From: Candidatus Poribacteria bacterium
GTDB taxonomy: Bacteria > Poribacteria > WGA-4E > WGA-3G
Direction of reading: 5' to 3'
Length of the DNA: 64,000 nucleotides
Assembly (NCBI GenBank): GCA_965205025.1
Contig: CBDBFU010000011.1
Coordinates: 1-64,000, forward strand
Every line of letters begins with the position of its first letter. The first letter of the stretch is position 1. The notes below the pieces were generated by a model. It saw only the letters and a program-made list of their open reading frames with translations, made no database searches and was not told the origin of the DNA. The translations under genes and the position numbers were made by a program. Of this stretch, positions 95-52,592 are shown one piece after another.

Positions 95-885
95 ATGAAA
101 TTAGTGGTATATTTGTCTGTCCTAATCCTATTAATGGGTGGACTTCACACTGCAGATGCGGCTGTTAAAGACGACGGTTTAATCCTGTACTTCAGTTTTG
201 ACAAAGAGAGTGGTGGTAAGATTATTGACGAAACTGGTGGTGGCAATGATGCAACAATTGTTGCTGACGCGAAAATTGTCACTGATGATGCTGTGCACGG
301 AAAAGGTGCATTATTATGCGATACTAATTCCTCAAGTGTAACTGTAGATTCATTTAAAGAATTAGAGTCATATAAGGATAATACTTTCCTTTTTTGGGGT
401 GAATTTCACAAAAGCTAACTCTGGTGGTTGGGATCAGATCATTGCCAAGAAAGCTCCAAATTCGGATAGATCACCAGGTATTTGGACATGTGATCGGGTT
501 CCTCTTCATATCCATTGGCGATTTCAACCCGGTAATCAAGGTCCACACTGTGCAGGTCCTACTGGTGAGAATTCTGTTTTTGAAATAGGTGAATGGTATC
601 ATATCGCTGGTGCTAAAAAGGGGTGGTCAGATATCATTTTATGTTAATGGTAAACGGACTCAACAAAACAATGTTCCCGCCGATCATGTACAAGGAAATG
701 AACGATTATACATAGGTAGAACCGGATATAACTCCGCAAAGTTTATTTTAGATGATCTCTATGTATATGACCGGGCCCTTGATGCTGATGAAGTTGCAGG
801 TGTGATGGATGGAGAACTACTTCCTGTCCAACCACAAGCTAAACTTACAACTACTTGGGGGCAAGTCAAGACAAATAGAGACTAA
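95..885 (+). CDS. Secreted LamG-like (concanavalin A jellyroll) protein, split by two +1 homopolymer frameshifts
   Basis: ORFs 95-418, 399-647 and 589-885 join into one protein if one G is removed from each G run (~396-399, ~620-623). Signal peptide, LILYFSFD, WYHIAG and IDD/LDDLYVYDRAL motifs, C-terminal KLTTTWGQVK. GGAGG RBS upstream. Confidence 0.85.
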
Positions 886-903
886 TTACAATTTTATAAT
901 ATT

Positions 904-930
904 GGGACAGATTCCGTGCTGTCCCTTATT
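904..930 (+). terminator. Intrinsic terminator-like hairpin
   Basis: GGGACAG/CTGTCCC stem followed by TTATT, just after the stop codon. Confidence 0.55.
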
Positions 931-1016
931 CAATTCTTATCATTTTTACTTACATTGTATCTATAACATATTCAATGAATACTAAAATGGCTTAAACTCA
1001 TTATAGGAGAAATTAA

Positions 1017-1803
1017 ATGAAAAATACAATATACTTGTTTGTCACAATACTACTTTCTGTGGCAATTCAAACTTCACCTGCTGACATTAAAGACAAAGGT
1101 TTGATTCTATACTTAGATTTTGATAATGAGAATGGCGGAAAAATCGAAGATAAAACTGGTGGTGGAAACCATGCTAATATAGTTGGAAAAGCAGATATAT
1201 CAACGGATGAAAAAAAATATGGTAAAGGTTCACTTGAAATTAGAGATGCCAATGCTGAAGTTCAAGTAAATACTTTCAAAGAATTGGAAGATTATCAGGA
1301 TAATAGTTATCTATTTTGGTTAAACTTCATTTCCGCACACAACGGTGCATGGAGTCAAATAATTGCGAAGAAAGCTCCTGCTTCAGATAGATCTCCAGGC
1401 ATCTGGATCTGTCCAAATTCATTAAACATACATTGGCGTTTCAATCCTGGAAACCAAGGAACAGGTTGTGCCGGTCCAACCGGTGAAGGTAGTGTGTTTG
1501 ATTTGAAACAGTGGTATCATGTTGCGGGAATAAAAAAAAGATGGTACTTTACACTTTTATATTAATGGTGAAGAACAATTGAAGATTGGTGTTCCTGCCA
1601 ACCACCAACAAGGTGCAGAAAAACTATACATTGGTAAAACAGGATATAGAGCTGCTACATTTTATATTGATGATCTGTATGTATATAATAGAGCTCTTGA
1701 TGCGGATGAAGTACAAAGTGTTATGGACGGGGACCTTCTACCTGTAGAACCCACAGATAAACTTGCCACATCATGGGGACAGATAAAGTCGAATCGAGAC
1801 TAA
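1017..1803 (+). CDS. Secreted LamG-like protein (tandem paralog), one +1 frameshift
   Basis: ORFs 1017-1565 and 1579-1803 join if the A8 run at ~1532-1539 is read as A7 (IKKDGTLHFYINGEEQLK). Close paralog of the upstream gene; ends KLATSWGQIK. Confidence 0.87.
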
Positions 1804-1819
1804 GTTTTAAATAATATTG

Positions 1820-1850
1820 AAGGGGCAACTTTGAAGTTGTCCCTTTTTGT
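1820..1850 (+). terminator. Intrinsic terminator
   Basis: AGGGGCAACT-TTGA-AGTTGTCCCT stem-loop followed by a T tract. Confidence 0.75.
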
Positions 1851-1934
1851 TTTTATTTTGTGTCTGAAGTTTAAATTAAAGGGAAATAATCTTTAACTGA
1901 TTGTGATTTTTGATACTAACTACCGAGGAGTTAA

Positions 1935-2723
1935 ATGAAAAAGGGAATATGCATTGGTTCCATACCAGGGGATACAACTGAAGCAAGATTCAAAAATGCT
2001 AAAGATGCAGGTTTTGATGGTGTGGAAATTGGCCCATTGGAAACTCAGGAACAAAGACTGGAAATAAAGCAACTTGCTGACGATATTGATATAGAATTAT
2101 GTAGCGTCATGAATGGGAAACATTGGTCCCACCCGCTATCAGATGCTGATGCTTCTGTTCGTGAAGAATCCCGTAATGCAGTGGTGACATCTCTCGAAAC
2201 AGCCGAGACAATTGGAGCAGATACTGTATTATTGGTTGCGGCAGTAGTGAATCCAAGCACAACTTATGAGGAAGCATACCAACGTTCACAAGAAGAAATT
2301 AAGAAATTAATTCCAACAGCAAAGGAAAAAAGACTTACTATTGCAATAGAAAATGTATGGAACAAATTCCTATTGAGTCCAATGGAGTTTGCGCAGTATC
2401 TTGATGAATTTGAAAGTGAATCTGTCTCGGCATATTTTGATGTCGGAAATATTGTTGCCTACGGTTTTCCACAACATTGGATACGTTCTCTTAGTAGTCG
2501 CATATCTAAGGTACATGTGAAAGGGTTTAATGCAAACGAACATCGGTTTACATATTTAATTGATGAATGCACAATTGATTGGAATGAAGTAATGTCAGCA
2601 TTGAATGATGTAGGTTATGATGACTATATGACAGCAGAATTACCGGTAGATGCGGATGACCCTGATGGCACATTGCATAAAATAAGCAGTGATATGACTA
2701 AGATCATTGCCGGAGAGGTATAA
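1935..2723 (+). CDS. Sugar phosphate isomerase/epimerase (xylose isomerase-like TIM barrel)
   Basis: AGFDGVE, IAIENVWNKFL, YFDVGN, VHVK and TAE motifs. Confidence 0.88.
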   Translation: MKKGICIGSIPGDTTEARFKNAKDAGFDGVEIGPLETQEQRLEIKQLADDIDIELCSVMNGKHWSHPLSDADASVREESRNAVVTSLETAETIGADTVLLVAAVVNPSTTYEEAYQRSQEEIKKLIPTAKEKRLTIAIENVWNKFLLSPMEFAQYLDEFESESVSAYFDVGNIVAYGFPQHWIRSLSSRISKVHVKGFNANEHRFTYLIDECTIDWNEVMSALNDVGYDDYMTAELPVDADDPDGTLHKISSDMTKIIAGEV

Positions 2724-2737
2724 CACTTTCTATTCAG

Positions 2738-3517
2738 ATGGAAGTAATTATTCAACCTAATACTCATCAACTATCTGTCGTTGCATCGGAAATTATTCGT
2801 GATGCAGTAATTAAAAAACCTAATCTCGTATTAGGTTTGGCTACGGGAAGTACACCCATAGGTCTTTATAAATTACTCGTACAAATGCATAAGGAAGATG
2901 GACTTGATTTCTCTAAGGTTACTACTTTTAATCTGGATGAATATATTGGGATACCGAAGGATCACCCTCAAAGTTATCATACATTCATGGCGAAGCACTT
3001 TTTCGAACATGTAAACATTCCGAAGAAAAATCAGAATATCCCACAGAATATCGTGGAAAACCATGTCGCTTTTTGCCAAGCGTATGAAGATTCTATTAAG
3101 AGGTATGGCGGTATTGATATACAGGTTCTCGGAATTGGGCAGGACGGACACATAGGTTTTAATGAGCCGGGGTCATCGTTTGCCTCTCGTACTCGAATGG
3201 TAACTTTATACAAGAGTACACTTAAAGCGAATGCAGTCCATTTTGGTGATGATATCGATGCTGTTCCCGAAATGGCAATTACAATGGGAATTGGAACAAT
3301 TATGGATGCAAAGCAATGTCTGCTATTAGCAAGAGGCACAGTGAAGAAAGATGCTATTGCTAAAACAATTGAAGGTCCGATCAGTGCTATGGTACCGGCA
3401 TCAGCATTACAAATGCATCCGAATGCCGTCTTCTTAATTGATGATGCGGCATCATCAAATCTAAAAGAGGCAGAATATTATAAACGGTCTTATGAGAACA
3501 AAATAAGATATGGGTAA
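2738..3517 (+). CDS. nagB: Glucosamine-6-phosphate deaminase
   Basis: LGLATGSTP, FNLDEY, LGIGQDGHIGFNEPG, AITMGIGTI motifs. Confidence 0.95.
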   Translation: MEVIIQPNTHQLSVVASEIIRDAVIKKPNLVLGLATGSTPIGLYKLLVQMHKEDGLDFSKVTTFNLDEYIGIPKDHPQSYHTFMAKHFFEHVNIPKKNQNIPQNIVENHVAFCQAYEDSIKRYGGIDIQVLGIGQDGHIGFNEPGSSFASRTRMVTLYKSTLKANAVHFGDDIDAVPEMAITMGIGTIMDAKQCLLLARGTVKKDAIAKTIEGPISAMVPASALQMHPNAVFLIDDAASSNLKEAEYYKRSYENKIRYG

Positions 3518-3548
3518 CCAAGAAAGGAATTACTGTCAGAAGGATTAT

Positions 3549-4976: not shown

Positions 4977-5117
4977 TTTTACACACAGGTATGTCTTTCA
5001 AATATTAAAAGAGATAAAGTTGTTGAGTAAATATACATTTCAAATAATGAATAAGAAATGTATGTATACGTGCTTATCAACTTACATAATACAACAAAAA
5101 TACCCCGTCTCTTATGA

Positions 5118-5244: not shown

Positions 5245-5273
5245 TTGACAATCCACTCTTCGTTTGGTAAAAT
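5245..5273 (+). promoter_or_regulatory. Sigma70-type promoter for selA
   Basis: TTGACA-N17-TAAAAT with extended -10 TG. Confidence 0.65.
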
Positions 5274-5341
5274 TCCATAGTGGTTTTACCTATCTATCGA
5301 CATTGTCCTATATACATTCTTATTCACTATTAGGAAGAGAT

Positions 5342-6775
5342 TTGTCTACAGAAAAAATTGGAAGCGATAAGGAAGAATTACTTCGAAAACTTCCTGCAAT
5401 CGAAAGACTTCTGACTCAACCTGAAATCATCAAATTATTTAAATCGTATTCAAGATCATTGATTACGGACATATTGCGTTCTATCGTTTCAGATTTTAGA
5501 TTACAGATCTTAGAAGGTAATACAGAGATTAAAATTCCTAACCGTGATGAATTTCCTGAGTTAGTTATTCAACATCTTGAGGATAAATTAAAACCACCTA
5601 TCCGTACTGTAATAAATGCTACTGGAACTATAACTCATACGAATCTTGGACGATCATTACTACCAGAATCAGTATGTGATAATATTGTGAATGCTGCACA
5701 GAATTATGTTAATTTAGAATACGACTTAGAAACGGGAACAAGGGGACATAGGGATAGACTAACTGAACCTTTACTTCAAGAATTAACAGGTTGTGAAGCA
5801 TCTACTATAGTCAATAATAATGCTGCTGCAGTACTTATTTCATTAAACACGCTTGCACAAGGGAAAGAGGTAATTGTTTCGCGAGGTGAACTGATTGAAA
5901 TTGGTGGTGCATTTCGTATACCTGATGTGATGGCTGCAAGTGGTGCAATTCTTAAAGAAGTCGGGACAACAAATAGAACGCATCTACGTGATTATGAAGA
6001 TGCGATAAATGAGAATACTGCACTGTTTCTGAAAGTTCATCCCAGCAATTATAAGATTGTTGGCTTTACTTCAACTCCAGACATCCGAGAATTAGCACAA
6101 CTTGGGAAGGAACATAATATCCCAATTATGGAGGATTTGGGGAGTGGAGCATTAGTGGATCTATCAAATTATGGTCTTCCATACGAACCTGTTGTAGCAG
6201 ATAGAATTGAAGCTGGAGTTGATATAGTTTCCTTTAGTGGGGACAAATTGTTAGGTGGTCCACAGGCTGGAATAATTGCAGGTCAATCACGGATGATACA
6301 ACAGATACGAAAAAACCCTTTGATGCGAGCATTACGGGTAGATAAATTGACAATTGCAGCACTCTCAACCACACTACAGAATTATCTATATTTAGATAAT
6401 GATATTACTGATGATTTTCCAATGCTACAACGATACATACGTCCTGTAGAGGAATTATATGTTTCTGCTGAATATGTATCTGAGAGATTAAAGAGTGTTT
6501 TCCAAGATAGTATCTCAATTGAAGTATCTGAAACGAAATCCCAAATTGGTAGTGGTTCATTACCTGAAGAAACTTTAGATAGTGTTGCTATAGTGCTAAC
6601 TCCGAAGGTAATTTCTGTAGAAAAACTATCAGAGTTATTCCGGTATGCAAGTACTCCAGTGATTGGACGAATAGAGGATAATAAATTATACTTTGATATT
6701 AGAACGTTATATGATGATGAAATAGATTGTTTAATTCAAACTGCTAATGAGATTTCATCAAGAATTAATGTATAA
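5342..6775 (+). CDS. selA: L-seryl-tRNA(Sec) selenium transferase
   Basis: VINATGTITHTNLGRS, NNNAAA, SRGELIEIGG, EVGTTNRT, FSGDKLLGGPQAG, RALRVDK. Start moved to TTG 5342 (AGGAAG RBS; the promoter overlaps the longer ORF start). Confidence 0.96.
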   Translation: MSTEKIGSDKEELLRKLPAIERLLTQPEIIKLFKSYSRSLITDILRSIVSDFRLQILEGNTEIKIPNRDEFPELVIQHLEDKLKPPIRTVINATGTITHTNLGRSLLPESVCDNIVNAAQNYVNLEYDLETGTRGHRDRLTEPLLQELTGCEASTIVNNNAAAVLISLNTLAQGKEVIVSRGELIEIGGAFRIPDVMAASGAILKEVGTTNRTHLRDYEDAINENTALFLKVHPSNYKIVGFTSTPDIRELAQLGKEHNIPIMEDLGSGALVDLSNYGLPYEPVVADRIEAGVDIVSFSGDKLLGGPQAGIIAGQSRMIQQIRKNPLMRALRVDKLTIAALSTTLQNYLYLDNDITDDFPMLQRYIRPVEELYVSAEYVSERLKSVFQDSISIEVSETKSQIGSGSLPEETLDSVAIVLTPKVISVEKLSELFRYASTPVIGRIEDNKLYFDIRTLYDDEIDCLIQTANEISSRINV

Positions 6776-12139: not shown

Positions 12140-12880
12140 ATGATTATTAGAAGAATAGTTTTTGGTTTCATTTTTCTCTTTTTAGTGATGTGTGTTGTTT
12201 CCATTTCATTTGCTGGCACCTGGCGTGATGATTTTGAAGACAATGATACAAAAGAATGGGAAATCTTCAATCTTAACCGACAAGTAGAGAAATGGTGGAT
12301 TAATGATGACGAAGCAGTTGGTGAGATTTTTCAACCCGGATTTTGGAGTCTTTGGATGACGGGTAAAAGCAACTGGAAGTATTATGCTGTCAGATGTGTA
12401 GTTAAACTAATTGATGAAAAAAACGATCCCCCATATTTTGGTCTCACTCTTCATGACAGAGGTGAGGAAGGGGGACGTTATGTGTTTTATGTAGACTATA
12501 TAAGAGGGTTTGCAGTCATTGATAAATGGGTAGCAAATGGTGGATCGGTCAGACGGAATTTCGTTGCTGACAAAGATGTTTGGTATGAACTCACTGCATC
12601 TGTACAATTAAATCCGATTGAAGAAGACGAGGCGATACTCGAGTTTAGCATAAAGAATGCTGATGTTAAAGCTGATAATCCTCTGGTGACAATTACCGCT
12701 CAGGATGCCGACCCTATAGACAAAGGTCAAGTCGGTCTTGCTATTAGCAATGCTCGTGTACGATATGATAATGTTGAAATTTCTGGGACTAACATTCCCA
12801 ATGGGGGTCCTGGTAAACCTTTTACGGTCAAACCATATGCCAAACTTGCCACCTCATGGGGTAAAATTAAAGAAAATTAG
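12140..12880 (+). CDS. Secreted beta-sandwich protein with C-terminal KLATSWG motif
   Basis: Signal peptide (SFA-G), WRDDFED start, YDNVEISG, ends VKPYAKLATSWGKIKEN. Confidence 0.8.
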   Translation: MIIRRIVFGFIFLFLVMCVVSISFAGTWRDDFEDNDTKEWEIFNLNRQVEKWWINDDEAVGEIFQPGFWSLWMTGKSNWKYYAVRCVVKLIDEKNDPPYFGLTLHDRGEEGGRYVFYVDYIRGFAVIDKWVANGGSVRRNFVADKDVWYELTASVQLNPIEEDEAILEFSIKNADVKADNPLVTITAQDADPIDKGQVGLAISNARVRYDNVEISGTNIPNGGPGKPFTVKPYAKLATSWGKIKEN

Positions 12881-12972: not shown

Positions 12973-14631
12973 TTGTTGTTTTTTATGCATATAATTTTAA
13001 GATATCTTTACTTCATTTTTCTATTTTTCCCTATTCAATTAATACAGGCTGAATTACCACGTTTTACTGAAATTACTGATCCCTCAGGTTTGAACTTTAT
13101 CCACAATAATGGAGCATTTGGAGAAAAATATCTCCCTGAAACGATGGGTTCGGGATGTGCATTTCTTGACTATAATGATGATGGTTGGGTGGACATTTTC
13201 TTGGTTAATTGTAAAGATTGGGAAGGACAAGAAACAGGTAAATCTCAAACTCCAGCATTGTTTCAAAACCAAAAAGATGGAACATTCAAAGATGTAACTA
13301 ATGTCGCAGGATTGAACGTGAATGTCTATGGAATGGGTGTTGCGGTAGGAGACTATGATAATGATGGTGATGATGATATCTACCTAAGTTGTCTAAATGA
13401 TGATAGATTATTCCGTAATAATGGTGATGGAACTTTCAAAGATGTTACAGAGGAATCAGGAATTACGAATCCCGGATTCGGTACAAGTTGTGCATGGTTT
13501 GATTACAATTTGGATGGTTTTTTGGATTTATATATAGCCAATTACGTTAAATGGACAATAGAAACTGATCTTTATTGTACTTTAGATGGCAAAAACAAGT
13601 CTTATTGCACCCCAGAATCGTATTCTGGACAAGCGAGTAAACTCTTTCGTAACAGAGGGAATGGAACATTTGTTGAAGTTTCACGTATCGCTGGTGTGAG
13701 TGATTCTGAGAGTAAGTCATTAGGGGTTTGTATTCTTGATTATAATGCTGATGGTTTACCAGATATCTTTGAGGCAAATGATACACAACCTAATAAGTTG
13801 TATCAGAATAATGGTGATGGAACATTTATAGAAGTTGGTATGCTCACTGGAGTCGCATTTAATGAGAATGGTGTCGCTACAGGAGCAATGGGGGTGGATG
13901 CTGGAGATTATGACAATAGCGGAAAAGAAAGTCTAATTATAGGTAATTTTTCTAATGAAATGATCAACTTATATAAGAATGAAGGGGATTTCTTCATTGA
14001 TGATGCACCGATTGCTAAACTTGGTCAACCATCATTGTTAACCCTTACATTTGGGTGTTTCTTTTTTGATTTTGACCTTGATGGTAAGCTTGATATATTT
14101 ACGACAAACGGTCATGTTGAAACAGATATAAACCTTATACAGAGGAAAGTTACATATCCACAACCTCCCCATCTATTTCGGAATTTAGACGGTGGTAGTT
14201 TTACTGATGTAATTCAGAAAGTGGGTAATGACTTATTAAAACCTGTAGTTGGGAGAGGAACAGCCTATGGGGATATTGATAATGATGGAGATCCTGATAT
14301 ACTTGTAACTACATCGAATGGTCCTGTTCATTTATTTCGGAATGATGGTGGGAACCGATATAATTGGTTAAAAATTAAACTTGTTGGTCAAAAGAGTAAC
14401 AGAAACGGATTAGGAGCTCGTATTGAGGTAATTTCAGCTACTGGTGTACAAACACGAACTGTAAGAAGTGGTTCAAGTTATTGTTCCCAGAGTGAAATGA
14501 AAGTATTCTTTGGTTTCAAAAATGACCAAGTAATAGATAAAATCAAGATAGAATGGCAAGGTGGGAATGCAGATATCCTTGAGAATATAAATACAAATCA
14601 AGAAATTACTATTGAAGAAAGTCAATTGTAA
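12973..14631 (+). CDS. CRTAC1/ASPIC-UnbV family FG-GAP repeat protein
   Basis: Repeated DYDNDGDxD motifs, ETMGSG, C-terminal NRNGLGARI...GSSYCSQS (UnbV-ASPIC). Confidence 0.9.
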   Translation: MLFFMHIILRYLYFIFLFFPIQLIQAELPRFTEITDPSGLNFIHNNGAFGEKYLPETMGSGCAFLDYNDDGWVDIFLVNCKDWEGQETGKSQTPALFQNQKDGTFKDVTNVAGLNVNVYGMGVAVGDYDNDGDDDIYLSCLNDDRLFRNNGDGTFKDVTEESGITNPGFGTSCAWFDYNLDGFLDLYIANYVKWTIETDLYCTLDGKNKSYCTPESYSGQASKLFRNRGNGTFVEVSRIAGVSDSESKSLGVCILDYNADGLPDIFEANDTQPNKLYQNNGDGTFIEVGMLTGVAFNENGVATGAMGVDAGDYDNSGKESLIIGNFSNEMINLYKNEGDFFIDDAPIAKLGQPSLLTLTFGCFFFDFDLDGKLDIFTTNGHVETDINLIQRKVTYPQPPHLFRNLDGGSFTDVIQKVGNDLLKPVVGRGTAYGDIDNDGDPDILVTTSNGPVHLFRNDGGNRYNWLKIKLVGQKSNRNGLGARIEVISATGVQTRTVRSGSSYCSQSEMKVFFGFKNDQVIDKIKIEWQGGNADILENINTNQEITIEESQL

Positions 14632-15272: not shown

Positions 15273-18200
15273 ATGCGAATCTTTAAATTCTTTTTACTAT
15301 TTTACTTACTGGTTTTTTTAAGCAAAGTTAATGCTGATTCATGGATGTGTGGTACTCCTTTACTTTGTGAACGTTATACCAACATACAGAATAAAAATAT
15401 AAAAAGCTTAACAAATATACCTGCGGCACCAGCACCTCCTATTAAATTAGGTCAGGTAGAAAGGTTTTATGTTCATATTCCTGAAACATCTGTAAATGCT
15501 ATATGTGTTAATATTGGTGTAAATTGTTATATATATATTGATATAACTGTCCAGAACTTACTAACAGAAAATGAGGCAAAGAATATCACAGATACTTTCG
15601 ACGAGAAAATCTACTCTGGTGTTCAGGAATGGATGGGATCAGAATTCAAACCTGGAATTGATCGTGATAATAAAATTACTATTTTATTCCACGATGTAGG
15701 AATGAATAAATCCGGACGTGATTATGGTGGTTATTTCTCTCCGACAGATCTTCAACCCACTCATCCAAAAAGTAATAGACGTGATATTCTCTATATGGAT
15801 ATTTATCAATTTAAGGAAAGAGCCAGACATACATTCTATAGTAGTTTAGCACATGAGTTTGCACATTTAGTTAGCTGGTATCAAAACGGTGGTACAAATG
15901 ATCAACGTTGGTTAGAAGAAGGGTTAGCTTCATTTACTGAATGGGGCATTTATGGCACTGTACATACACTTTTTGTTGATAACTATCTCTCTAACCCCAG
16001 TCTATCACTTACAACTGCAAATACATCAGATATATATTATGGCGCTGCCTTTATGTATCTCCTATACCTATATGAAAACCATGGGAGTAAGTCTATTATA
16101 AGGAGAATTTCAGCTGAGGATAAACTTGGTTTAGAAGGAATAGGAAAATCATTAAAGGGTACAGAATTGATTGATGTTTTTCTAAATTGGGGAATAACTA
16201 ATTGGATTAATAATCCTCATTTCGGGACAGACTTCAGTTATAGGAATCTTCGAAATAGGAAAATCAATGCTAATATTCCAGTAATTACATCCTATCCATC
16301 AAGACATAATAGAACTGTAGAAAGTTGGGGTTTTCAATATTTCTTGTATAAGAATCTTCCGGATAAAATGGAAATTTCATTACAAGGACATCCCCAAGTT
16401 GATTTATATGCAAAGATTGTCTACTTATTGCCGAATAACAATGAACCGGTTGTTTTACCAATTCATTCTAATACAGACAAAAATAAAGGGATAGATACAT
16501 CGACTTATACTATTACTTTAGAAAATTTAAAACCTGAAGGACAGATACTCGTAATTCTTACCAGTCCCTATACACAGGTTTTTACCATCGTAGCAAATCC
16601 TACCATAGATTTAAACCCAATCGACCTAAGTAATGAGAATGATTTGCCTACATCGAATATCAATAACAGGTTTAGAATCTATTTACCAGATTCTGTAAAA
16701 TACCCACCCAGAAGTAAGTCTCAAATAATTAACCTATGGAATACTCAGTCCGGTATAATCCATTCCAATACCTCATTTCAATTAAAGCCGAGAACACAGA
16801 TTCATCTCTCGAGTAATTATCAAGATATCATTATATTTAATGGATTTGCATATACTACAAGTGACTGGGGACTGGAAGTATTCAGTTTAGGTGAGGATTT
16901 GACTAAGATAAGTGAAATTGAAACACCGGGTTCAGCAGGGAGTATAGCAAATGATGGAGAAAATCTATTCATTGCCGACGGTAATTCAGGAGTACATTTG
17001 ATTGATATAAGTAATCCTGAACTCCTCAGAATTCTAAAGACTATCAAGGGTTTTCAGGATGTAAGTTATATACATATTGCTAATGGTAATATGTATGCAC
17101 TTGACACTATACGTGGGTTGTTGGTTTATAGATTACAGGACATTTATAACCTGGAGAATCCACATCCCAAACGAACATATATAACTAATGGAATCCCATT
17201 GAGTGTATCAACAAAGGGGGAGGATGTATACTTAAGTGATAATGCAGTTGGAGTATATATTCTCACGCCAGATCCACTTGGTGGGTACAATGTAAAAGGA
17301 ACATACCCTCTTGCCGTCCTTGATTTTGAAATTGGAGATGATAATATACAACTTGTTTCTAATAATCTGCACATTATAAATGTAGATGTTCCTGCAGAAC
17401 CAAAACCAATCACTATATTAAATACACCAGGTCTGGCTACAAGTATACAACGTCTTCAAGATTTTCTATATTTGACTGATATACATGCCGGTCTTCACAT
17501 TGTTAATATAGGTAATCCTTTCAAACCAGTGTTAATCACTTCTCATCCTACTATCGGCTCAGCAAATAGCCTTGCATTATGGCAAACAGAATCATCAGAT
17601 GAATATGCTTATATAGCAGATGGATTAGGGGGTATACAGACTTTCGATATAACAAATCCATATTCTCCGAAATGGTTAACTCAATATGATGCTGGTGGCA
17701 GAGCGTATGATCTTGATATAACTAACAATGGGTCGAGAATTGCCGTCGCACATGGGGAAGGGGGTTTAAAGGTTATAGAATTATCTGATCCTTATACAGG
17801 AGATATAATACAGGATATACGCTCGATAAAAGATGAATTAGGAACAATATGTGTCACCATTGATGAAGATCTTGCTTTTATTGGATTAGAAGATGGTATG
17901 GTAGTTATTGATATTATTTCGGGGGATACTCTTGTAAAGATAAATACTGAGCACCCAGTCTTTGCAATAGATTTAATAGAAGATTATGCATATCTCTGTG
18001 CAGGATCACTTGTTGTTGTAGATATTAGTAGGATTGAATTGAGTAGAATTGTCTCAAACCGTAATCTGAATGGTAATGTATATAAAATTGATCATAATTC
18101 TACTCATGCGTATATTGCAGCACTTGAGGGAGGGGTACATATATTAGATATATCAAACCCATCTCAACCTCGACCAATTCACCATTACCAAACTGAAGGT

Positions 18201-18872
18201 GCTGCAACCAACGTGACACTTTCAAATAATTATATCTATATACTTGATACACACATCGGGGTACTAAAACTTGACAACAGTAAACAAGACAATCTTAAAT
18301 TAATCTCAACTTACAAAGATACGACAATACCAATAGTAGCAAAAGTTAAGGACGATTTACTATTCTTACTTGATGTCGAAAGTCTGCAGGTTATTCATAC
18401 CGAGACAATGCTACGAGAGAAACGTTATACACAATTACATGCTCCTTCAGACTTACTGGTCAACGGGAATGCTATTTATATAGCAGATTTATACCAACTT
18501 AACATCTATCAAATTGATACAAATTTAAGCAATTTAGGTGTAGAAGACTATAAAGTAGATGATAATTTGCCATTCACGGATTTATCTCAACGATCCTCGA
18601 ATCAGTTGTTGCAAAACTATCCTAATCCATTTAATCCAGAAACATGGATTCCAATTTCTCTCGCAACCGATACTGATTTCAGTTTATCAATCTACGATGA
18701 GAAAGGACACATTGTTGCATTTCAAGAATATGGAATCCATTCACAAGGTAGACATATTTTGCATTGGGATGGTAGAAATACAAGAAATGAAAAGGTGGCA
18801 AGTGGTATGTATTTTTATACTATTAAAGCAGGAGAGTTTAAAGCAACCCGGAAAATGGTAATCAGAAGATAG
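15273..18872 (+). CDS. Secreted zinc metallopeptidase with LVIVD repeats and FlgD-Ig/Por-secretion-like C-terminal domain
   Basis: Signal peptide, CGT prodomain-like motif, AHEFAH plus WLEEGLA, repeated YAYIADG-GL-I-DI-NP units, LLQNYPNPFNPETWIP...WDGRN...SGMYFY tail. Confidence 0.85.
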   Translation: MRIFKFFLLFYLLVFLSKVNADSWMCGTPLLCERYTNIQNKNIKSLTNIPAAPAPPIKLGQVERFYVHIPETSVNAICVNIGVNCYIYIDITVQNLLTENEAKNITDTFDEKIYSGVQEWMGSEFKPGIDRDNKITILFHDVGMNKSGRDYGGYFSPTDLQPTHPKSNRRDILYMDIYQFKERARHTFYSSLAHEFAHLVSWYQNGGTNDQRWLEEGLASFTEWGIYGTVHTLFVDNYLSNPSLSLTTANTSDIYYGAAFMYLLYLYENHGSKSIIRRISAEDKLGLEGIGKSLKGTELIDVFLNWGITNWINNPHFGTDFSYRNLRNRKINANIPVITSYPSRHNRTVESWGFQYFLYKNLPDKMEISLQGHPQVDLYAKIVYLLPNNNEPVVLPIHSNTDKNKGIDTSTYTITLENLKPEGQILVILTSPYTQVFTIVANPTIDLNPIDLSNENDLPTSNINNRFRIYLPDSVKYPPRSKSQIINLWNTQSGIIHSNTSFQLKPRTQIHLSSNYQDIIIFNGFAYTTSDWGLEVFSLGEDLTKISEIETPGSAGSIANDGENLFIADGNSGVHLIDISNPELLRILKTIKGFQDVSYIHIANGNMYALDTIRGLLVYRLQDIYNLENPHPKRTYITNGIPLSVSTKGEDVYLSDNAVGVYILTPDPLGGYNVKGTYPLAVLDFEIGDDNIQLVSNNLHIINVDVPAEPKPITILNTPGLATSIQRLQDFLYLTDIHAGLHIVNIGNPFKPVLITSHPTIGSANSLALWQTESSDEYAYIADGLGGIQTFDITNPYSPKWLTQYDAGGRAYDLDITNNGSRIAVAHGEGGLKVIELSDPYTGDIIQDIRSIKDELGTICVTIDEDLAFIGLEDGMVVIDIISGDTLVKINTEHPVFAIDLIEDYAYLCAGSLVVVDISRIELSRIVSNRNLNGNVYKIDHNSTHAYIAALEGGVHILDISNPSQPRPIHHYQTEGAATNVTLSNNYIYILDTHIGVLKLDNSKQDNLKLISTYKDTTIPIVAKVKDDLLFLLDVESLQVIHTETMLREKRYTQLHAPSDLLVNGNAIYIADLYQLNIYQIDTNLSNLGVEDYKVDDNLPFTDLSQRSSNQLLQNYPNPFNPETWIPISLATDTDFSLSIYDEKGHIVAFQEYGIHSQGRHILHWDGRNTRNEKVASGMYFYTIKAGEFKATRKMVIRR

Positions 18873-38827: not shown

Positions 38828-40380
38828 GGGTGTGTAAACTTTTTGGCATGAAAATCAGGTTGCCTTTGTGTAGTGTTAATATTTATCGTTTTTATATGAT
38901 AGCACTTTCACGGAAACCTTCACGGAGCAATTTTACGAAGCCTTATTCTATAAGGGTTTGTAATTTTAACTATTCCAATTTTCCGTGAATCACATACGTT
39001 AATTATATTATAACTAAAGTGTGTATTTAGTACTTATCTGTTTTTCATACGAAGTGTATTGGGACATAGCATTCCGCTGGAGTGCCAGACTGTCCGATAT
39101 TGTTTTCTATAGACATAGTACTCCGCTGGAGTACGGTATTTTTGATATAGAAAACTCCAAAAAATAGACTTATCATTAGATTCTTAGTTACCCCCTGAAA
39201 TAGAATTGTCAAAATTATAGTAGTGAAGAATAAACTGTAATTCTCGAAAGGGTGTGTAAAGTTTTTGGCATGAATATCACGGATCATAGGGTTATTAGCT
39301 TATAGTTGGTAGTTATTAATTTACAGTTGTTAGTTTTTTAGTTGTTCACAATAGTTATATTTATGTTTTCTATATGTTGAATAAAGTTACACTTTTTGTC
39401 ACATGGTGTGACATTGGTAAAACTCCTCTCTCGTCAGTACTACAATGGGTTTAGAGCCATTTTTTTAAGGTCACAAGAATTTGTTAAAATTATAAAATGG
39501 GATGAATTTTGTGTCTTTTACTTTTGTTTTTGATCCATTGATTTAGGATTGTTTGAATGTGATGTTTTTTATCTATCCATTTTGACATGGTATTAGAATA
39601 TATTCGATAAATCATAGATTCGGAGGATTCTTTGTACGTACCATTTGCTATATTTTCAACCAACGGCCTGGGAAACACCAATTCTATGAAGAGAATTATA
39701 TCTGTATGGACGATTCTTAGTAATGAGATACACTGTAGTTTTCTGGTGTGTATGATAGTCTGTTTTGTTTGAAGTCGGTCTAATTTTAAGTTTTTTGAGT
39801 TATTCAAGTTTTTCAAGTTTTTTGAGTTGCTTTTTAGGAAATGATTTTTTAATGAGCCGAAAACCCTGTTGAGGGTTGGGATAACAAAGGATTTGAGTAA
39901 TAGGTGTAAAATTTTAAAATTTGAAAAACTAAAAAAATATTTGGTTGAATTCGCATTGATTTTCCTCTGTATCTGCTTATAAGGTGATAATTCTGAATGT
40001 TTTAGTTGTAATTCTAACATGGATTTTCCTATTTCCCAGATAGTGGATTTGGTTGAATTTGGCATAAAGTTTAGAAGCCTAAATAATTAGCCAAAATAAT
40101 TAGAAGAGAGTTACACTTTCACAACATAAATAATATTTCGTATCTTCCAAGTAATATATTATTTTTAGTTAATAATTAGTGGACGATATAGTATTGTATC
40201 ATTTTATTTGCATTTTGACAAATATTTTTAATTTATTTTATGTTATTGTGATATATGTGTGTTAGTTGTTAGACGTTCCTATTTTCTTCAAAATTATTTT
40301 AAGTCTTATGGAAAAAGTGTGAAATTAGAATTTGATACAGTTTATATTCAGTAAATTAATGTCATAAACTTTAGACACCC
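38828..40380. mobile_element. Transposase-less element bounded by GGGTGT(G/C)TAAAGTTT-type terminal repeats
   Basis: Direct ~30-bp copies at 38828 and 39250; inverted copy ending at 40380 (19/22 match to the 39250 copy); no credible CDS inside. Confidence 0.45.
39063..39135 (-). repeat. REP-like palindrome doublet (CTCCAGCGGA family)
   Basis: Reverse complement reads GTACTCCAGCGGAGTACTATGTCTATAGAAAA...GCACTCCAGCGGAATGCTATGT, the same layout as 33649-33719. Confidence 0.75.
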
Positions 40381-40529: not shown

Positions 40530-41312
40530 ATGAATTACAATAAACATAATACAAGAAACCGTGTTGGATACATAATCGGTTTGTCTATCTTAATGTTCTC
40601 ATTCCTAATCTTCACTGAAATAGTAAATGCAGAAGATCTTGTTTTACACTTATCATTTGATGAGCTTAATGGAAAAGTATCCAAAGATTCATCTGAATTC
40701 CGAAATGATGTGACTTTTACCGGTTCACCTAAACTTGTTGATGGTAAATTTGGAAATGCAATTGATTTCGATGGAAAAACACATGGTGAAGTTCCTGATC
40801 ATTCCAGTATTGATATTGTTGATGGAATTACAATTGAATTCTGGGCAAAATTAAGAGCTGGAGCAGATGTTCAAACAGGAGTAGAAAAAGGTCCCGCATG
40901 GGGTGCAGGTTTATATACCCTCGCTGCCTTCTATCGTGGTGGTTCTATTCTACAATTCTTTGATTTGCCCGATAATTGTGATGATGAAAATGTTGGTGGA
41001 AGTATACTTGATGGAAATTGGCATTTTTTGGCGGGTACATGGGACGGGAATACCATCAAACTTTACATTGATGGTGTCTTGAATAAACAATTAGATTGTA
41101 AAGGTGAACTTGTTCCAAACAATGGAGCATTATATATCGGTGCAAGGGGAGGAAAAGAACGGTATGTCACCGGCGCACTTGATGAAATAAAGATGTATAA
41201 CTATGCTCTAACTGAGGATGAGTTGCTTACGGATATGGACAATCCATTACTTCTAAACGTAGAACCCAAAGGAAAACTCGCTACTACTTGGGCACGACTT
41301 AAAGGCAAATAA
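40530..41312 (+). CDS. Secreted LamG-like protein
   Basis: Signal peptide, LVLHLSFDE, GKFGNAIDFDG, WHFLAGTWDG, LDEIKMYNYAL motifs; ends VEPKGKLATTWARLK. Confidence 0.9.
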   Translation: MNYNKHNTRNRVGYIIGLSILMFSFLIFTEIVNAEDLVLHLSFDELNGKVSKDSSEFRNDVTFTGSPKLVDGKFGNAIDFDGKTHGEVPDHSSIDIVDGITIEFWAKLRAGADVQTGVEKGPAWGAGLYTLAAFYRGGSILQFFDLPDNCDDENVGGSILDGNWHFLAGTWDGNTIKLYIDGVLNKQLDCKGELVPNNGALYIGARGGKERYVTGALDEIKMYNYALTEDELLTDMDNPLLLNVEPKGKLATTWARLKGK

Positions 41313-41321: not shown

Positions 41322-41885
41322 ATGAAGAAATTTGTTTACATCTTACCACTATTATTTATTATACACTATTTTACTGCATGTTCTCTCCTTCCAGGTGCTA
41401 ATCAATCAGGAGAAAATGTTGCTGTTCTTAAGACAGAAAAAGGCACCGTTGTAATTGAGTTCTATGACGAATCTGCCCCTGTGGCAGTTGAAAACTTCAA
41501 AAAACTAATCAGTATGAAATTCTATGATGGATTAACATTCCATCGCATTGTCAACCAACCAGGATTAAATATTGTTCAGGGAGGTTGTCCGAAAGGAGAT
41601 GGAACTGGTGACCCGGGTTGGAAGATTGTTGATGAATATACCAATCCAAATCAACGGAAACACATGAGAGGAACAGTTGCTATGGCACGTGCAAACATGC
41701 CAGACTCCTCTGGAAGTCAGTTCTACATCTGTCTACAACCACAGCCTCATCTTGATGGACAATATACAACCTTTGGTGGTGTTATTCAAGGGATGCATGT
41801 CGTCGATATGTTAGCAATAGGCGACAGAATCACCACCATTCGTTTGGAGGCTAAGTCGAAATATGTTAAGGCAGCAGAGAATTAA
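41322..41885 (+). CDS. Cyclophilin-type peptidyl-prolyl isomerase, lipoprotein
   Basis: FTAC lipobox; FYDGLTFHRI, QGGCP, MARA, GSQFYI, HLDGQYTTFG motifs. Confidence 0.92.
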   Translation: MKKFVYILPLLFIIHYFTACSLLPGANQSGENVAVLKTEKGTVVIEFYDESAPVAVENFKKLISMKFYDGLTFHRIVNQPGLNIVQGGCPKGDGTGDPGWKIVDEYTNPNQRKHMRGTVAMARANMPDSSGSQFYICLQPQPHLDGQYTTFGGVIQGMHVVDMLAIGDRITTIRLEAKSKYVKAAEN

Positions 41886-42504
41886 TGGATATAATTACAT
41901 CTTTTGGTCCATAATATGTGCATTTCTTATTGGTATTTCCGGTTGTGCACAACAAGATCAACAATCATCTTCAACTACTGAATCAAGTGAGACAACTCAA
42001 CAATCCGATACTTCGCAAGAAATATCCAAACCAGAAACACAGGTTGAGAAACCCACGCCTCAAGTTAAACCTGCAATTGACCCAGCGAATGCAATTGCTG
42101 TAATAGAAACGGAAAAAGGAAATATTGAGTTTGAATTCTTTGCATCTGATGCACCAATCACAGCAAAGGCATTTATTAAACATGCAAATCTTAATTATTA
42201 TAAGAACGAGAAATTTCATCGTGTAGAAGAATTAATCGTTCAGGCTGGCTCTGCTTTTGTGGATGACACACTACCCATAGAAAAAGGTGATCATCAACTC
42301 GTTAAAGGTGTCGTATTGATGGCGAAAGTAGAAGGAGAATCCGTCTCAGATGCAGATGAATTCTTTATTTGTAAATCGCCTATTATATTAGATGATGACT
42401 TTACAACGCTTGGTAAAGTTATTAAAGGACTTGATGTATTAGATAACCTTGTAAAAGATGATAAGATTATTAATATCTCAATTCGAGAACGTGATAATGA
42501 ATGA
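41863..42504 (+). CDS. Divergent cyclophilin-like lipoprotein
   Basis: ISGC lipobox, S/T/Q linker, IETEKG, FHRVEE..VQAG, GKVIKGLDV motifs. Confidence 0.82.
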   Translation: MLRQQRINGYNYIFWSIICAFLIGISGCAQQDQQSSSTTESSETTQQSDTSQEISKPETQVEKPTPQVKPAIDPANAIAVIETEKGNIEFEFFASDAPITAKAFIKHANLNYYKNEKFHRVEELIVQAGSAFVDDTLPIEKGDHQLVKGVVLMAKVEGESVSDADEFFICKSPIILDDDFTTLGKVIKGLDVLDNLVKDDKIINISIRERDNE

Positions 42505-44616: not shown

Positions 44617-44627
44617 TTGATTATATT

Positions 44628-47804: not shown

Positions 47805-47903
47805 ATGCTTACTGACAAACATGATGCTTTTGGATACCTCAGAACACTACATTGAATCAGGTAAGCCTACATATATTGCAATTTTGAAGAAAAAGAGTAT
47901 ATC

Positions 47904-48803: not shown

Positions 48804-48862
48804 TACTCTATTACTATCCATTCTTTGATGATGTAAATCTTTCATCAACACCCAAAATACAA

Positions 48863-49864: not shown

Positions 49865-49875
49865 TAAATGGAGTC

Positions 49876-50148
49876 ATGCTTGAGAACAACATTCAATTTA
49901 AGACTCCAACATTAAGAAATGTTGCTCTTACTGCTCCCTACTTTCATACAGGGGACCCGACATTGACATCAGTCATTGAATTTAACAATGCAGGTGGTGT
50001 ACCTTCAGGTTTTGTAGGAACCAGAGAGGGAACGCTTGAACCCTTACATCTTACAGATAAGGAAATCGATGAATTAGTGAAATTTCTATTAACACTTACA
50101 GGCGAATTACCACCTGAAAATCTATTAAGAAAACCCAACCTTCCGTAG
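49876..50148 (+). pseudogene. C-terminal remnant of a di-heme cytochrome c peroxidase/MauG
   Basis: FKTPTLRNVALTAPYFHTG...LTDKEIDELVKFLLTLTG; the CxxCH-bearing N-terminal part is missing. Confidence 0.75.
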
Positions 50149-50339
50149 ATTACTCCTTACCATTTTTAACTACTAACAGATGAAATGATGTTTACTTCTC
50201 GTTTCATGGTGATTAATATTAAAGAGCTAAAAGCAATATTAATAGCCAATTTTTTGCTAATTTGATAATTCCCAGATTTACGAGTTGTTAAAGAATAATG
50301 TAAATTCTTAAGAACCGTTGCTATTTAATTAGAAAATAT

Positions 50340-50368
50340 TTGACAACTTTCGACATATAATGTATAGT
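50340..50368 (+). promoter_or_regulatory. Sigma70-type promoter
   Basis: TTGACA-N17-TATAGT. Confidence 0.65.
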
Positions 50369-50670
50369 AAATTTATAGGTAGCATGGGGTAAGAGAATAA
50401 CGACCTTATATTTTTTAGGTTATATTTTCGATTTTTGGGATTTTACTATGAAAAACCGACAAGCAAAATTGACATATAAAATTGAGATGTTAAATGGTTA
50501 TCGTCGGAGCGGGAACCGCTTACGTACAATAGCCGCAGGCTTTGCTTTAACCCAAGATTTTTCACCCCCCCCCCACGTCACCTCGTTAAACACAACTTTA
50601 CTTCTGTTAACTATTATAGAGCGTTACAGAAGAGTAACATTAAGAATATTAGCAGTTGTCCTATTTTCGC

Positions 50671-50720
50671 GCTCGCACGTACTTCGTCTTTCACGGAGTG
50701 TTACGTCGCGGGCTTTTTTT
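50671..50720 (+). terminator. Long hairpin terminator upstream of the tandem secreted-protein genes
   Basis: GCTCGC-ACGT-ACTTCGT/ACGGAGT-(GTT)-ACGT-(C)-GCGGGC stem followed by T7. Confidence 0.7.
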
Positions 50721-50872
50721 GTTGCATTGGAGAGTCCTTCAATGTTTGTCAATTTAGTTGTATCAAGTCGTTTGTCATTCAACTTATCATGTAAAATCAA
50801 ATAATACAAACTGATTTTAAAATTAGTGGTTGAAAATTCTTAATTTCATTTTCATATAATAAGGAGTGTGGA

Positions 50873-51691
50873 ATGAAAAAAATGATATTAATTATGGCTA
50901 TGGCAATAGGGTATACTCTTACTCTATTAACTACTCCAATGCCATGTATAGCTTTACCACTTGGTGAAGTAGCAATTTATACTCAACGAGCTGGATGGAT
51001 GGGGCTCGCTGCCGCAGTTGCAGAAGGTAAAGAATTAGCTGACCTGTTAAAGAAACCTTCAAAGGTTGTTAACTTAAATGACCAAGAGATAGGAGATTGG
51101 GCAAAAAAACATACAGATAACGGTTTATCTGATATTATCGTCACTTTTGGGGACTTCCCAGATGCACTTTACCCAAAAGGTAATGCTAAGCCTGACGGCT
51201 CGATTGCAGAAAATTTCCTTGAAGGCGGAAATATCTTCCTCAATACTGCAGATTATATTTTTTATGTGGTAGAAGGTGCTGGGACCAACGGTGAACAAGG
51301 TTTGAAAAATATGATGGATATAAATGCTGACATGTGGGGAGACAATACCGCTATTAAACCAACAGCAGATGGTGAAAAATACACACCAACTCTCGCTGCC
51401 TTCACTACAGCGCGCCCCTTCAAGACTGCCCAGATTGTTGATCCTTGGGAAGTTGAAGTGGCTTTTGGTGACAATGGATCAGGCTTTCTCGATCCTGCAA
51501 TTGTTCACGACACCGAAACCGGTGGCCGCATAGGAATCCTTTACCAAGCACCTGGTAATGATGCACTCCCACGAGGTAAGGTGTTAGCAGAGATGATAGA
51601 TAACTTCCTCTTTGAAGTACTTGGTGCTCAAGCGGTTGATCCTCAACAGAAAGCAACAACTACATGGGGAGATCTAAAATCCGATTTTTAA
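50873..51691 (+). CDS. Secreted protein of unknown function with C-terminal TTTWG motif
   Basis: AAGGAG RBS, signal peptide, ends VDPQQKATTTWGDLK; paralog of the next gene. Confidence 0.85.
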   Translation: MKKMILIMAMAIGYTLTLLTTPMPCIALPLGEVAIYTQRAGWMGLAAAVAEGKELADLLKKPSKVVNLNDQEIGDWAKKHTDNGLSDIIVTFGDFPDALYPKGNAKPDGSIAENFLEGGNIFLNTADYIFYVVEGAGTNGEQGLKNMMDINADMWGDNTAIKPTADGEKYTPTLAAFTTARPFKTAQIVDPWEVEVAFGDNGSGFLDPAIVHDTETGGRIGILYQAPGNDALPRGKVLAEMIDNFLFEVLGAQAVDPQQKATTTWGDLKSDF

Positions 51692-51776
51692 CTGGAAATA
51701 GAATATATTGAATCATCATGATAATTCAATATATTCTTGTATTATAATACTCAAAATTCCTCTCAAAGGAGACTTA

Positions 51777-52592
51777 ATGAACATGAGAAAAGTGATATTC
51801 GCATTTACCATACTTTTTGTTTTCGTCGCTACTACTTCCAGTTGGGCAGGACTTGGTGATGTTGCAATCTTTAGTGAAGGAGTTGGATGGATTTCAAAAG
51901 ATAATGCTGATATTCAGCGTGCTATAGTATTTGATAATTTGAAAAACGAAGTGTCTTCTGTTGGTGATGTTGTCTATAAAACCGATGCAGAAATCGGACC
52001 TTGGGCAGAAGATAGAATTGATGATGGTAAAGCAGACATCATCATTGTCTTTGGGTGGTTTCCAACAACTCTATATACCCCCGGGAATTCACAGGTTGAT
52101 GATTCAATTGCCGAACGTTTCCTCTACGGTGGAAATATCATCCTAAATTGTGCCGACTATGCTTTCTATGTTTCTGCAGATGGTGGCAATGGTGATAGTG
52201 GCTTGAAGAATATCATTAATATCAATGCTGATATGTGGGGTGGTGGTACTGTTATTACACCTACAGATGATGGAAAGAAATATACACCAGCGTTGGTGAA
52301 TTTTACATCTGAACGGCCATTTAAGGCTAATCAGATTGTTGACCCATGGAGTGTTGAAGTGAAATTCGGTGATAACGGTGCTGACTTCTTCGATCCAGGT
52401 ATCATTAAATTGAATGATAGCAGTGGTCGTGTTGGAATCTGTATGCAAGAACCAAGTAGAGGTGACTTGCCACGCGGTCAAGTCCTGATTGAAATGATAA
52501 GTTTTATTTCAATGCAGGATGATGTAGCTACTCCGGTTGAACCTACCGGTAAAACATCAACGACATGGGGTACACTTAAAGCTGCTTGGTAA
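51777..52592 (+). CDS. Secreted protein, tandem paralog, C-terminal STTWG motif
   Basis: AAGGAG RBS before ATG 51777; shares GN..DxSIAE.FL.GGNI.LN.ADY.FYV with the upstream gene; ends VEPTGKTSTTWGTLK. Confidence 0.85.
   Translation: MNMRKVIFAFTILFVFVATTSSWAGLGDVAIFSEGVGWISKDNADIQRAIVFDNLKNEVSSVGDVVYKTDAEIGPWAEDRIDDGKADIIIVFGWFPTTLYTPGNSQVDDSIAERFLYGGNIILNCADYAFYVSADGGNGDSGLKNIININADMWGGGTVITPTDDGKKYTPALVNFTSERPFKANQIVDPWSVEVKFGDNGADFFDPGIIKLNDSSGRVGICMQEPSRGDLPRGQVLIEMISFISMQDDVATPVEPTGKTSTTWGTLKAAW

Follow-up and report, generated by a model that had tools for sequence, protein, structure and literature searches.

Portable C-terminal sorting signals led to the sortases, exosortases, archaeosortases, rhombosortases and myxosortases, and to the type IX secretion system (T9SS), whose C-terminal domain (CTD) is a folded beta-sandwich of roughly 70–100 residues. 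The window analysed here—64,000 nucleotides of a Candidatus Poribacteria genome (assembly GCA_965205025.1, contig CBDBFU010000011.1, positions 1 to 64,000 of the forward strand)—encodes six exported proteins that share a C-terminal tail of about 17 residues, V-[DE]-P-x-G-K-L-[TA]-T-T-W-[GA]-x-[LI]-K followed mostly by three polar or basic residues, which a preliminary description had put forward as a candidate sorting signal. The tail is real, statistically overwhelming and phylum-wide, and it is undescribed in the libraries and literature searched. It has the genomic hallmarks of a sorting signal with neither a transmembrane (TM) helix nor a folded domain, one or other of which every characterised signal depends on, so that its reader is likely to work differently.

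Results

Among 64 strict members from the window's genome (33 contigs, of which the window's is denoted C11; 5.66 Mb, G+C content about 38%, completeness 95.5%), the tail core reads [LTF]-[AP]-V-[ED]-[PA]-x-[GD]-K-L-[TA]-T-T-W-[GAS]-x-[LI]-K, with V kept in 58/64, K in 59/64, the paired T in 62/64 and 60/64, and both W and the final K in 64/64; the summed per-position values amount to about 45 bits over 15 tail positions. Between one and six residues follow the core, exactly three in 40/64 members, and these are mainly R, S, N, Q and K, with R enriched 3.0-fold, K 2.3-fold, and Q enriched as well. The strict motif T[TS]W[GA].[LIVM]K is found 59 times in the genome's 89,105 six-frame open reading frames (ORFs) and ends 1–6 residues before the stop in 58/59 instances, compared with a composition-based expectation of 0.4 occurrences anywhere and 0.01 at termini. 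A chance origin of the tail is therefore excluded.

A hidden Markov model (HMM), trained on the 64 tails and searched iteratively against the C-terminal 30 residues of 4786 crude gene calls (E≤0.01), recovered 142 carriers (approximately 3% of calls), far more than the six originally noticed, all with the match 0–12 residues from the stop. The same model gave 0 matches in two control sets, residues −60 to −30 and reversed termini, so the confinement to the C-terminus claimed for the first six holds across the genome, and internal occurrences are not frequent. At least one K or R stands among the trailing residues of 96/142 tails, without forming a basic cluster. The lack of a TM helix likewise extends to the whole collection: 0/142 tails had a 15-residue window of mean Kyte-Doolittle hydropathy ≥1.6 in the last 30 residues (maximum 1.35), a feature present at the C-terminus of 362/4786 gene calls genome-wide. 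Codon use within the tail is free: Thr is encoded by all four of its codons, Lys by both and Leu/Ile by six. This synonymous variation places the constraint on the peptide rather than on DNA or RNA.

The proposed scan had also called for signal-peptide co-occurrence, and this too was borne out. By a crude hydropathy rule applied to the 113 carriers mapped at the first HMM round, 89 had a signal peptidase I (SPI)-type signal, 17 had none and 7 were flagged as lipoproteins. Those lacking a signal were mostly fragments of less than 210 residues or miscalled starts, and the flagged seven, with their Cys within the hydrophobic core, look like false calls. Carriers as a class are thus not cytoplasmic.

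In the window, all six tail genes lie on the forward strand. LamG-type exported proteins are encoded at 95–885 (recognised from its ORFs, with Laminin_G_3 matching the last piece at E 2.1e-9), with the tail VQPQAKLTTTWGQVKTNRD at 826–882 and the stop TAA at 883–885, and at 1017–1803 (from translation and Pfam), with the tail VEPTDKLATSWGQIKSNRD at 1744–1800. A 246-residue exported protein at 12140–12880, weakly matched over residues 27–214 by PF06439 (3-keto-disaccharide hydrolase/DUF1080, E 0.05), carries VKPYAKLATSWGKIKEN at 12827–12877, and a 260-residue exported LamG protein at 40530–41312 (Laminin_G_3, E 2.3e-23; AlphaFold2 mean pLDDT 81.6) carries VEPKGKLATTWARLKGK at 41259–41309; the ATG at 40530 is likely its true start, the ORF list beginning upstream at TTG 40506. 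The remaining two form a tandem pair. The first, at 50873–51691, is a 272-residue exported alpha/beta protein of GATase1/ThuA-like type (model mean pLDDT 83.1) with the tail VDPQQKATTTWGDLKSDF at 51635–51688; the second, at 51777–52592, is its 271-residue paralogue (identity 47% in the alignment and 50% across the matched part), ending in the tail VEPTGKTSTTWGTLKAAW at 52536–52589, where again the ATG at 51777 is the likely start and the ORF list begins at TTG 51708. Each tail is followed directly by a stop codon, and each of the six N-termini shows a basic start, a hydrophobic core and a small-residue cleavage site, confirming the signal peptides first assigned to them. The accompanying claim of at least three unrelated families stood in part: the 50873/51777 pair is truly unrelated to the others, but the LamG proteins and the 12140 protein are not unrelated, given the weak DUF1080 match of the latter and that family's membership of the concanavalin-like group.

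The first two genes appear broken in the window, the one into three frames (95–418, 399–647 and 589–885) and the other into two (1017–1565 and 1579–1803). The breaks sit at homopolymers, T6G4 (approximately position 396), A5G4 (approximately 620) and A8 (approximately 1532), and each amounts to one extra base in the window relative to contigs of two public runs from two studies. The contig of run X1 has one base fewer at all three sites and otherwise 0 differences from the window; that of run X3, a relative with 103 differences, likewise has one base fewer at 396, 620 and 1532. The frameshifts are therefore assembly errors, and all six window tail genes are intact. Further homopolymer frameshifts are likely elsewhere in the window's assembly.

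Carriers have a median length of 262 residues (one domain plus the tail), with 111/142 at 200–350 residues and 15 longer than 500. With the tail removed, the 64 strict carriers fell into 15 BLAST groups, the largest being LamG (35/64). Pfam passengers in the genome comprise LamG_3, 3keto-disac_hyd/DUF1080, NPCBM, CBM9, PD40 propellers and giant LTD+Big_12 proteins, alongside several without a family; 33 full-length representatives from a global protein library added Kelch, F5/8C (discoidin), ankyrin and a sigma70-DUF1080 fusion. Passengers thus span at least eight Pfam-distinct families as well as families without a Pfam match, and their common theme is the small carbohydrate-binding-type module. 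The fusion (P0070) is a 445-residue ECF sigma-70 factor joined via a hydrophobic segment to a DUF1080 domain with the tail, and a member of its cluster is named Candidatus Poribacteria.

Structure prediction, proposed earlier as a check on whether the tail folds independently, left it unpacked on two unrelated folds, the LamG beta-sandwich and the GATase1-like fold. Foldseek matched the AlphaFold2 model of the 50873 protein to GATase1 and ThuA-like chains (E 1e-5 to 5e-4). Confidence is high over its body and low over the tail (within residues 256–272), residues 256–265 and 267–272 lying below pLDDT 50; in the model of the 40530 LamG protein the body is again confident and tail residues 244–260 fall below 50. 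Both models place a short, low-confidence helix over W-G-x-L-K. The 50873 family, sampled in 28 homologues that go down to 39% identity, keeps W265 and K269 without exception and V255 and K260 with at least 90% conservation, while its linker varies.

The same passengers also occur without the tail. Two lipoprotein paralogues of the 50873 family (C24:19625-20467 and C24:20641-21465) and an NPCBM lipoprotein paralogue (C10:71675-72460) show lipobox signals and lack everything from the start of the tail onwards, and at least nine large multi-domain paralogues have the passenger domain in their interior and close with a T9SS-type CTD that ends ...ATRKMLI.K. With at least eight Pfam families behind it, low model confidence on two unrelated folds and paralogues that end where it would start, the tail is not an integral element of one shared fold. 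The same modules come with an N-terminal lipid anchor, a T9SS-type CTD or the tail, as would be expected of a tail that governs location or attachment, although the evidence is circumstantial.

Relatives of the 50873 protein in public genomes are labelled as Candidatus Poribacteria metagenome-assembled genomes. A strict DNA pattern encoding K-x-x-T-T-W-x-x-[L/I/V]-K, run with a reversed-pattern control, found 57 places in the window's genome, all shortly before a stop, and matched in 175/176 species genomes of the phylum, typically at 40–110 places per genome in the window's family (reversed control 0–2). Two genomes of one genus, g25, gave 0 and 1 strict matches; once the two Thr were left free, they yielded 50 and 69 tails, and g25, considered as a naturally tail-less contrast for profiling, was discarded as such. 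By strict or relaxed pattern, then, the tail is present in 176/176 species genomes, in tens of copies each. In contrast, 151 genomes of another phylum (that of a record labelled Planctomycetota) gave 13 matches against 14 in the control, which is background; in that record itself a homologue of the 50873 domain lies in a 790-residue ORF that runs off the fetched locus, with no tail seen in the part fetched. Lineage specificity, as judged against one other phylum, is upheld.

The g25 tails differ from the rest in a concerted manner. All 32 distinct tails from one g25 genome have the middle [A/L/K]-A-[A/S]-[Q/V/T/A] in place of the L-[T/A]-T-T of the window's genome, a change at the very positions that are T in 62/64 and 60/64 strict members there, while G at +1 and L/I at +3 from the Trp, which the g25 search left free, are unchanged. 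The relaxed pattern fixed V-[DE]-P, K, W and K, whose persistence is accordingly no independent observation. A change of middle residues common to dozens of unrelated proteins argues for a single common constraint, such as one reader. Phylogenetic profiling, which had been suggested as a route to such a reader, has no presence/absence contrast to work with across the 176 genomes, the tail being universal there.

In a library of 1.84 billion protein representatives, a 35-position tail profile found 588 matches at E≤0.001. The best 150 of these were all positive with the tail HMM (150/150), and in 145 of them the tail ends at most 11 residues from the C-terminus; when 20 clusters were looked up, six members bore the name Candidatus Poribacteria and one only that of "bacterium". 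Three IMG/VR contigs filed as viral (L175, L176 and L177) each have an ORF containing the tail motif; a hydrophobic segment stands at the N-terminus in two of these ORFs, another is truncated where the locus ends, and that of L176 continues for about 28 residues beyond the motif. The contigs may be host fragments, prophages or phage-borne cargo.

No described signal was recognised in the tail. Neither Pfam nor NCBIfam (June 2026) had a model touching it (eight pieces of the six window proteins, E≤1), a sequence search of the PDB with the tail profile returned only two chance-level matches (E 0.4–0.5) and no relative, and NCBI names of carriers refer to the passenger domain or to hypothetical proteins, with nothing on the tail. 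No description of the tail was found in the literature searched, which did not extend to tables S8 and S9 of PMC3909097, where some of the genes may be listed as signal-peptide proteins.

The genome does possess T9SS-like parts. T9SS-type CTDs number at least 43, among them that of a 1199-residue LVIVD-repeat protein in the window (15273–18872, forward strand; PF18962, 27.6 bits). SprA-like matches score 41–77 bits, below the cut-off of 200, and are distant homologues; PorV-like barrels number five, one of them above the Pfam cut-off (28.3 bits) and found in 41/41 sampled genomes of the phylum; and three giant proteins are PorU-like sortase homologues (240–300 bits, cut-off 420). The loci of these SprA-, PorV- and PorU-like genes, taken jointly, include C17:26-1165, C12:243872-244987, C32:130536-136961, C20:332717-339244 and C2:157850-163027. 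GldL and GldM were not found in the genome, but the same searches matched in no control genome either. A 2014 paper on single-cell genomes of Poribacteria (PMC3909097) reported TIGR04183-like domains but no Por structural genes.

Nothing links the SprA-, PorV- and PorU-like genes to the tail. Of the five PorV-like genes, three are placed after giant cargo genes of their own, and one that lies 3 kb from a tail pair on C2 was set aside, since it stands directly behind a 1190-residue Ig-domain protein (FlgD_ig near the C-terminus) and so belongs to that gene. Complex prediction of the free-standing PorV-like barrel (residues 21–371) with the tail gave scores of 0.02 and 0.00 against a mark of 0.32, a result that bears on binding neither way. 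That these parts, the sole named candidates, are what reads the tail is unlikely.

Tail genes cluster, 54/142 adjoining another tail gene where 8.5 would be expected. Around the 64 strict genes the recurrent neighbours are PhyH proteins, GFO/IDH/MocA oxidoreductases, PD40 proteins, FG-GAP/UnbV proteins and a repeat family; none looks like machinery. PhyH is a large gene family in Poribacteria, to judge from a supplement title of PMC3909097. In the window, an FG-GAP/ASPIC-UnbV gene (12973–14631, forward strand) lies directly 3′ of the 12140–12880 tail gene, and its paralogues adjoin tail genes at four other loci (on C20, C24 and C26). Two overlapping genes for cyclophilin-type peptidyl-prolyl isomerases (41322–41885 and 41863–42504, forward strand) lie directly 3′ of the 40530–41312 tail gene; the tail has a conserved Pro, and the pairing was not seen at other tail loci. 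Giant tail-bearing LTD/Ig proteins (700–2000 residues, ending ...RLRGLISAKGK.TT.W..LK) adjoin giant T9SS-type-CTD proteins in duplicated loci (C27:40424-49096, C27:56868-66911 and C15:424289-451635).

Two further features of the window lie apart from the tail genes proper. A low-complexity 191-residue "ORF" on the reverse strand (39490–40065), with no Pfam match, belongs to a family for which BLAST finds 44 matches across the genome, many truncated and the best 88% identical; it resembles a dispersed repeat element more than a gene, with copies close to seven tail loci. A selenocysteine synthase gene, SelA, is present at 5264–6775 (forward strand; E 1.7e-155), from which it follows that the organism probably uses selenocysteine, and UGA-containing selenoprotein genes may be miscalled.

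Discussion

Anatomy, terminal position, portability, export signals, phylum-wide spread, constraint at the level of amino acids and the alternative anchors of paralogues are observed directly; from the anatomy, those anchors and the concerted evolution we infer a sorting or anchoring function, and with it a protein reader and some later fate for the cargo. The tail would serve, after Sec export, as a tag for sorting or attachment that is recognised by a single factor conserved across the phylum, a reading to which a probability of roughly 0.58 may be given. Carriers would leave the cytoplasm by Sec with an ordinary signal peptide, subsequently removed by signal peptidase I. The unfolded V-[DE]-P-x-G-K-L-x-T-T-W-G-x-[LI]-K-xxx, hanging off the last element of the passenger, would then be bound by one dedicated reader in the envelope, and once recognised the carrier would either be kept at or joined to the outer membrane or surface, or be carried across it; the tail might be taken off in the process. 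In that case the cargo, which consists for the most part of small glycan-binding-type modules with a single domain and also includes some giant surface proteins, would form a displayed, lectin-like coat on a sponge symbiont. In its broader terms the preliminary description, of a portable, lineage-specific C-terminal tag on exported proteins, is supported as far as genome data go: the tail is not part of one shared fold, is neither often internal nor borne by cytoplasmic proteins, and matches no characterised sorting domain, the function being the part that is deduced.

Several observations weigh against a dedicated reader or a sorting role. Sortase (PF04203) had 0 matches in the 95.5%-complete genome, while the control search found it in 3/14 genomes, and Exosortase_EpsH (PF09721) also had 0 matches in the genome, rhombosortase and CPBP-type enzymes lying outside the search. 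The tail lacks the TM segment of every characterised signal of the sortase/exosortase kind, none of the 142 being hydrophobic enough, and an intramembrane protease therefore cannot be its reader in the usual way. Because the tail is universal in the phylum, presence/absence profiling points to no reader, and the free-standing PorV-like gene of g25, where tails have changed, shows no extra divergence (40% identity, compared with 41–44% in sister genera; HisD control 50–51% and 47–52%). A few carriers elsewhere have no obvious signal peptide, for example the ankyrin-repeat protein P0105 as its gene is called. Moreover, conservation of a short peptide could also stem from direct binding to an invariant envelope polymer.

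That last point leads to an anchor without a reader, in which the Trp and two Lys of the tail would themselves bind an invariant component of the envelope (the membrane interface, peptidoglycan, lipid A or the lipopolysaccharide core) and hold periplasmic or surface proteins there without dedicated machinery, on the model of the C-terminal amphipathic anchors of some penicillin-binding proteins. All three residues are invariant; an i, i+4, i+7 spacing relates L at −4 to W at 0 and L/I at +3, both models predict a short if low-confidence helix there, the trailing residues are enriched in R and K, no reader was found, and the lipoprotein paralogues suggest that membrane tethering is a common need. 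Generic binders, however, usually tolerate variation, whereas the tail carries some 45 bits and includes a V-[DE]-P-x-G without an obvious binding role; Thr-rich, Gly-containing segments disfavour helices; and the −4 position no longer keeps its L in g25 (A, L or K) although V-[DE]-P, K, W and K stay, a weaker point given that the search pattern fixed these last residues. Such an anchor is unlikely on balance. The tail might instead be a docking peptide that plugs lectin-like modules into a common surface scaffold, for instance by strand addition in the manner of dockerin-cohesin or donor-strand pairs, as would suit a cargo consisting mostly of single carbohydrate-binding-type modules of about 250 residues, the clustering of tail genes, the adjacency of giant LTD/Ig and giant CTD proteins, and a fixed short distance to the free C-terminus, which fits a binding pocket. 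Yet no candidate scaffold was identified in which acceptor domains are repeated, the giant proteins bear tails of their own and so resemble cargo rather than scaffold, and the last one to six residues are variable. Docking of this kind is rather improbable.

A role in processing or turnover, as a pro-peptide or degron for a periplasmic protease that controls activation or lifetime rather than location, would agree with a terminal, unstructured tail appended after a folded domain, and tail-specific proteases that read C-termini do exist. But there is no evident reason to spend approximately 3% of the proteome on lectin-like modules with a common degron, the residues at the extreme C-terminus, where PDZ-type proteases read, are the least conserved, and paralogues with a lipid anchor or T9SS-type CTD in place of the tail point to location instead of turnover; this role is very improbable. 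Least credible of all is that there is no signal, the tail being the last strand of a shared fold or a translated DNA or RNA repeat such as a terminator or mobile repeat. LamG accounts for over half of strict carriers and a family-specific ending was thus conceivable, but the passenger folds are unrelated and the tail is unpacked in both models, Thr, Lys and Leu/Ile codons are used freely, and tails are kept in orthologues down to 39% identity, so that as far as sequence analysis reaches this explanation is already refuted.

A wider proposal stands at somewhat less than even odds: Poribacteria may possess a new envelope-sorting pathway in which one reader, neither sortase, exosortase nor intramembrane protease, recognises a helix-less 17-residue tag on about 3% of the proteome and displays, covalently attaches or secretes lectin-like modules that face sponge glycans. 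In one bold form, the tag would be the minimal signal for the phylum's divergent T9SS-like translocon and sortase; if true, this would be the first T9SS-type signal to be a short peptide rather than a folded domain.

With some 140 tagged proteins per genome, mostly of glycan-binding type, in a dominant and uncultured phylum of sponge symbionts, the tagged set is a probable surface or secreted interface between symbiont and host matrix. The tail profile is also a cheap marker for Poribacteria proteins in metagenomes, and the tryptic peptide that the tail yields, L-[TA]-T-T-W-G-x-[LI]-K, would allow cleavage to be looked for in existing sponge metaproteomes.

Comparison with known systems

Some classes of C-terminal signal can be set aside at once. 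The outer-membrane beta-signal is a C-terminal beta-barrel strand that ends in an aromatic residue; the passengers here are soluble folds and the trailing residues mainly R, S, N, Q and K. Encapsulin and microcompartment cargo and the substrates of type I secretion lack a Sec signal peptide, which is present on 6/6 window carriers and 89/113 mapped carriers. Closer is Braun lipoprotein (Lpp), an exported envelope protein attached to peptidoglycan through a C-terminal Lys, to which the invariant Lys near the end of the tail can be likened. In Lpp that Lys is the last residue, however, while in the tail it is trailed by one to six others and preceded by a Trp and another invariant Lys. Dockerin-cohesin and donor-strand docking offer a parallel in that one terminal module, shared by varied carbohydrate-binding or carbohydrate-active passengers, would bring them together at the surface. 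The dockerin, though, is a folded calcium-binding domain of about 70 residues, and no cohesin-like acceptor was identified here.

The T9SS CTD (Por_Secre_tail; PF18962/TIGR04183) resembles the tail in being C-terminal, TM-less and portable, on Sec-exported proteins of a diderm, and tail passengers recur inside T9SS-type CTD proteins of the same genome. The two nevertheless differ in size, about 17 unfolded residues as opposed to a Pfam model of 75 positions, in ending (...TTWGxIKxxx as opposed to ...ATRKMLI.K) and in their carriers (median 262 residues for the tail, mostly 600–2200 for the CTD). Pfam reported no Por_Secre_tail on eight pieces of the six window proteins at E≤1, while the PF18962 model does work in this genome, as its match to the 15273–18872 gene attests.

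A further comparison is with the small tripartite signals, LPXTG/sortase, PEP-CTERM/exosortase, GlyGly-CTERM/rhombosortase, MYXO-CTERM/myxosortase and CGP-CTERM: like these, the tail lies near the C-terminus in many copies per genome, has more than three near-invariant residues, is borne by signal-peptide carriers of many passenger families, and is confined to a lineage. It departs from them in having neither TM helix nor Arg cluster, in a total length of only about 17–20 residues, and in the sortase and exosortase searches, which found neither. Seven attributes of small C-terminal sorting signals are listed in 10.1101/2023.06.07.544157, of which the tail displays five (terminal position, multiplicity, an invariant signature, signal peptides and varied passengers); of another, a cluster of two to five basic residues, mostly Arg, the K/R enrichment in the one to six trailing residues is only a hint. 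The same source describes, for CGP-CTERM in Thermococcales, a signal universal in its clade whose enzyme cannot be found by co-occurrence profiling, as is the case for the tail. On this showing the tail appears to behave as sorting tags do, yet it falls short of the tests that define each known family, and there is a substantial chance that the machinery behind it is new.

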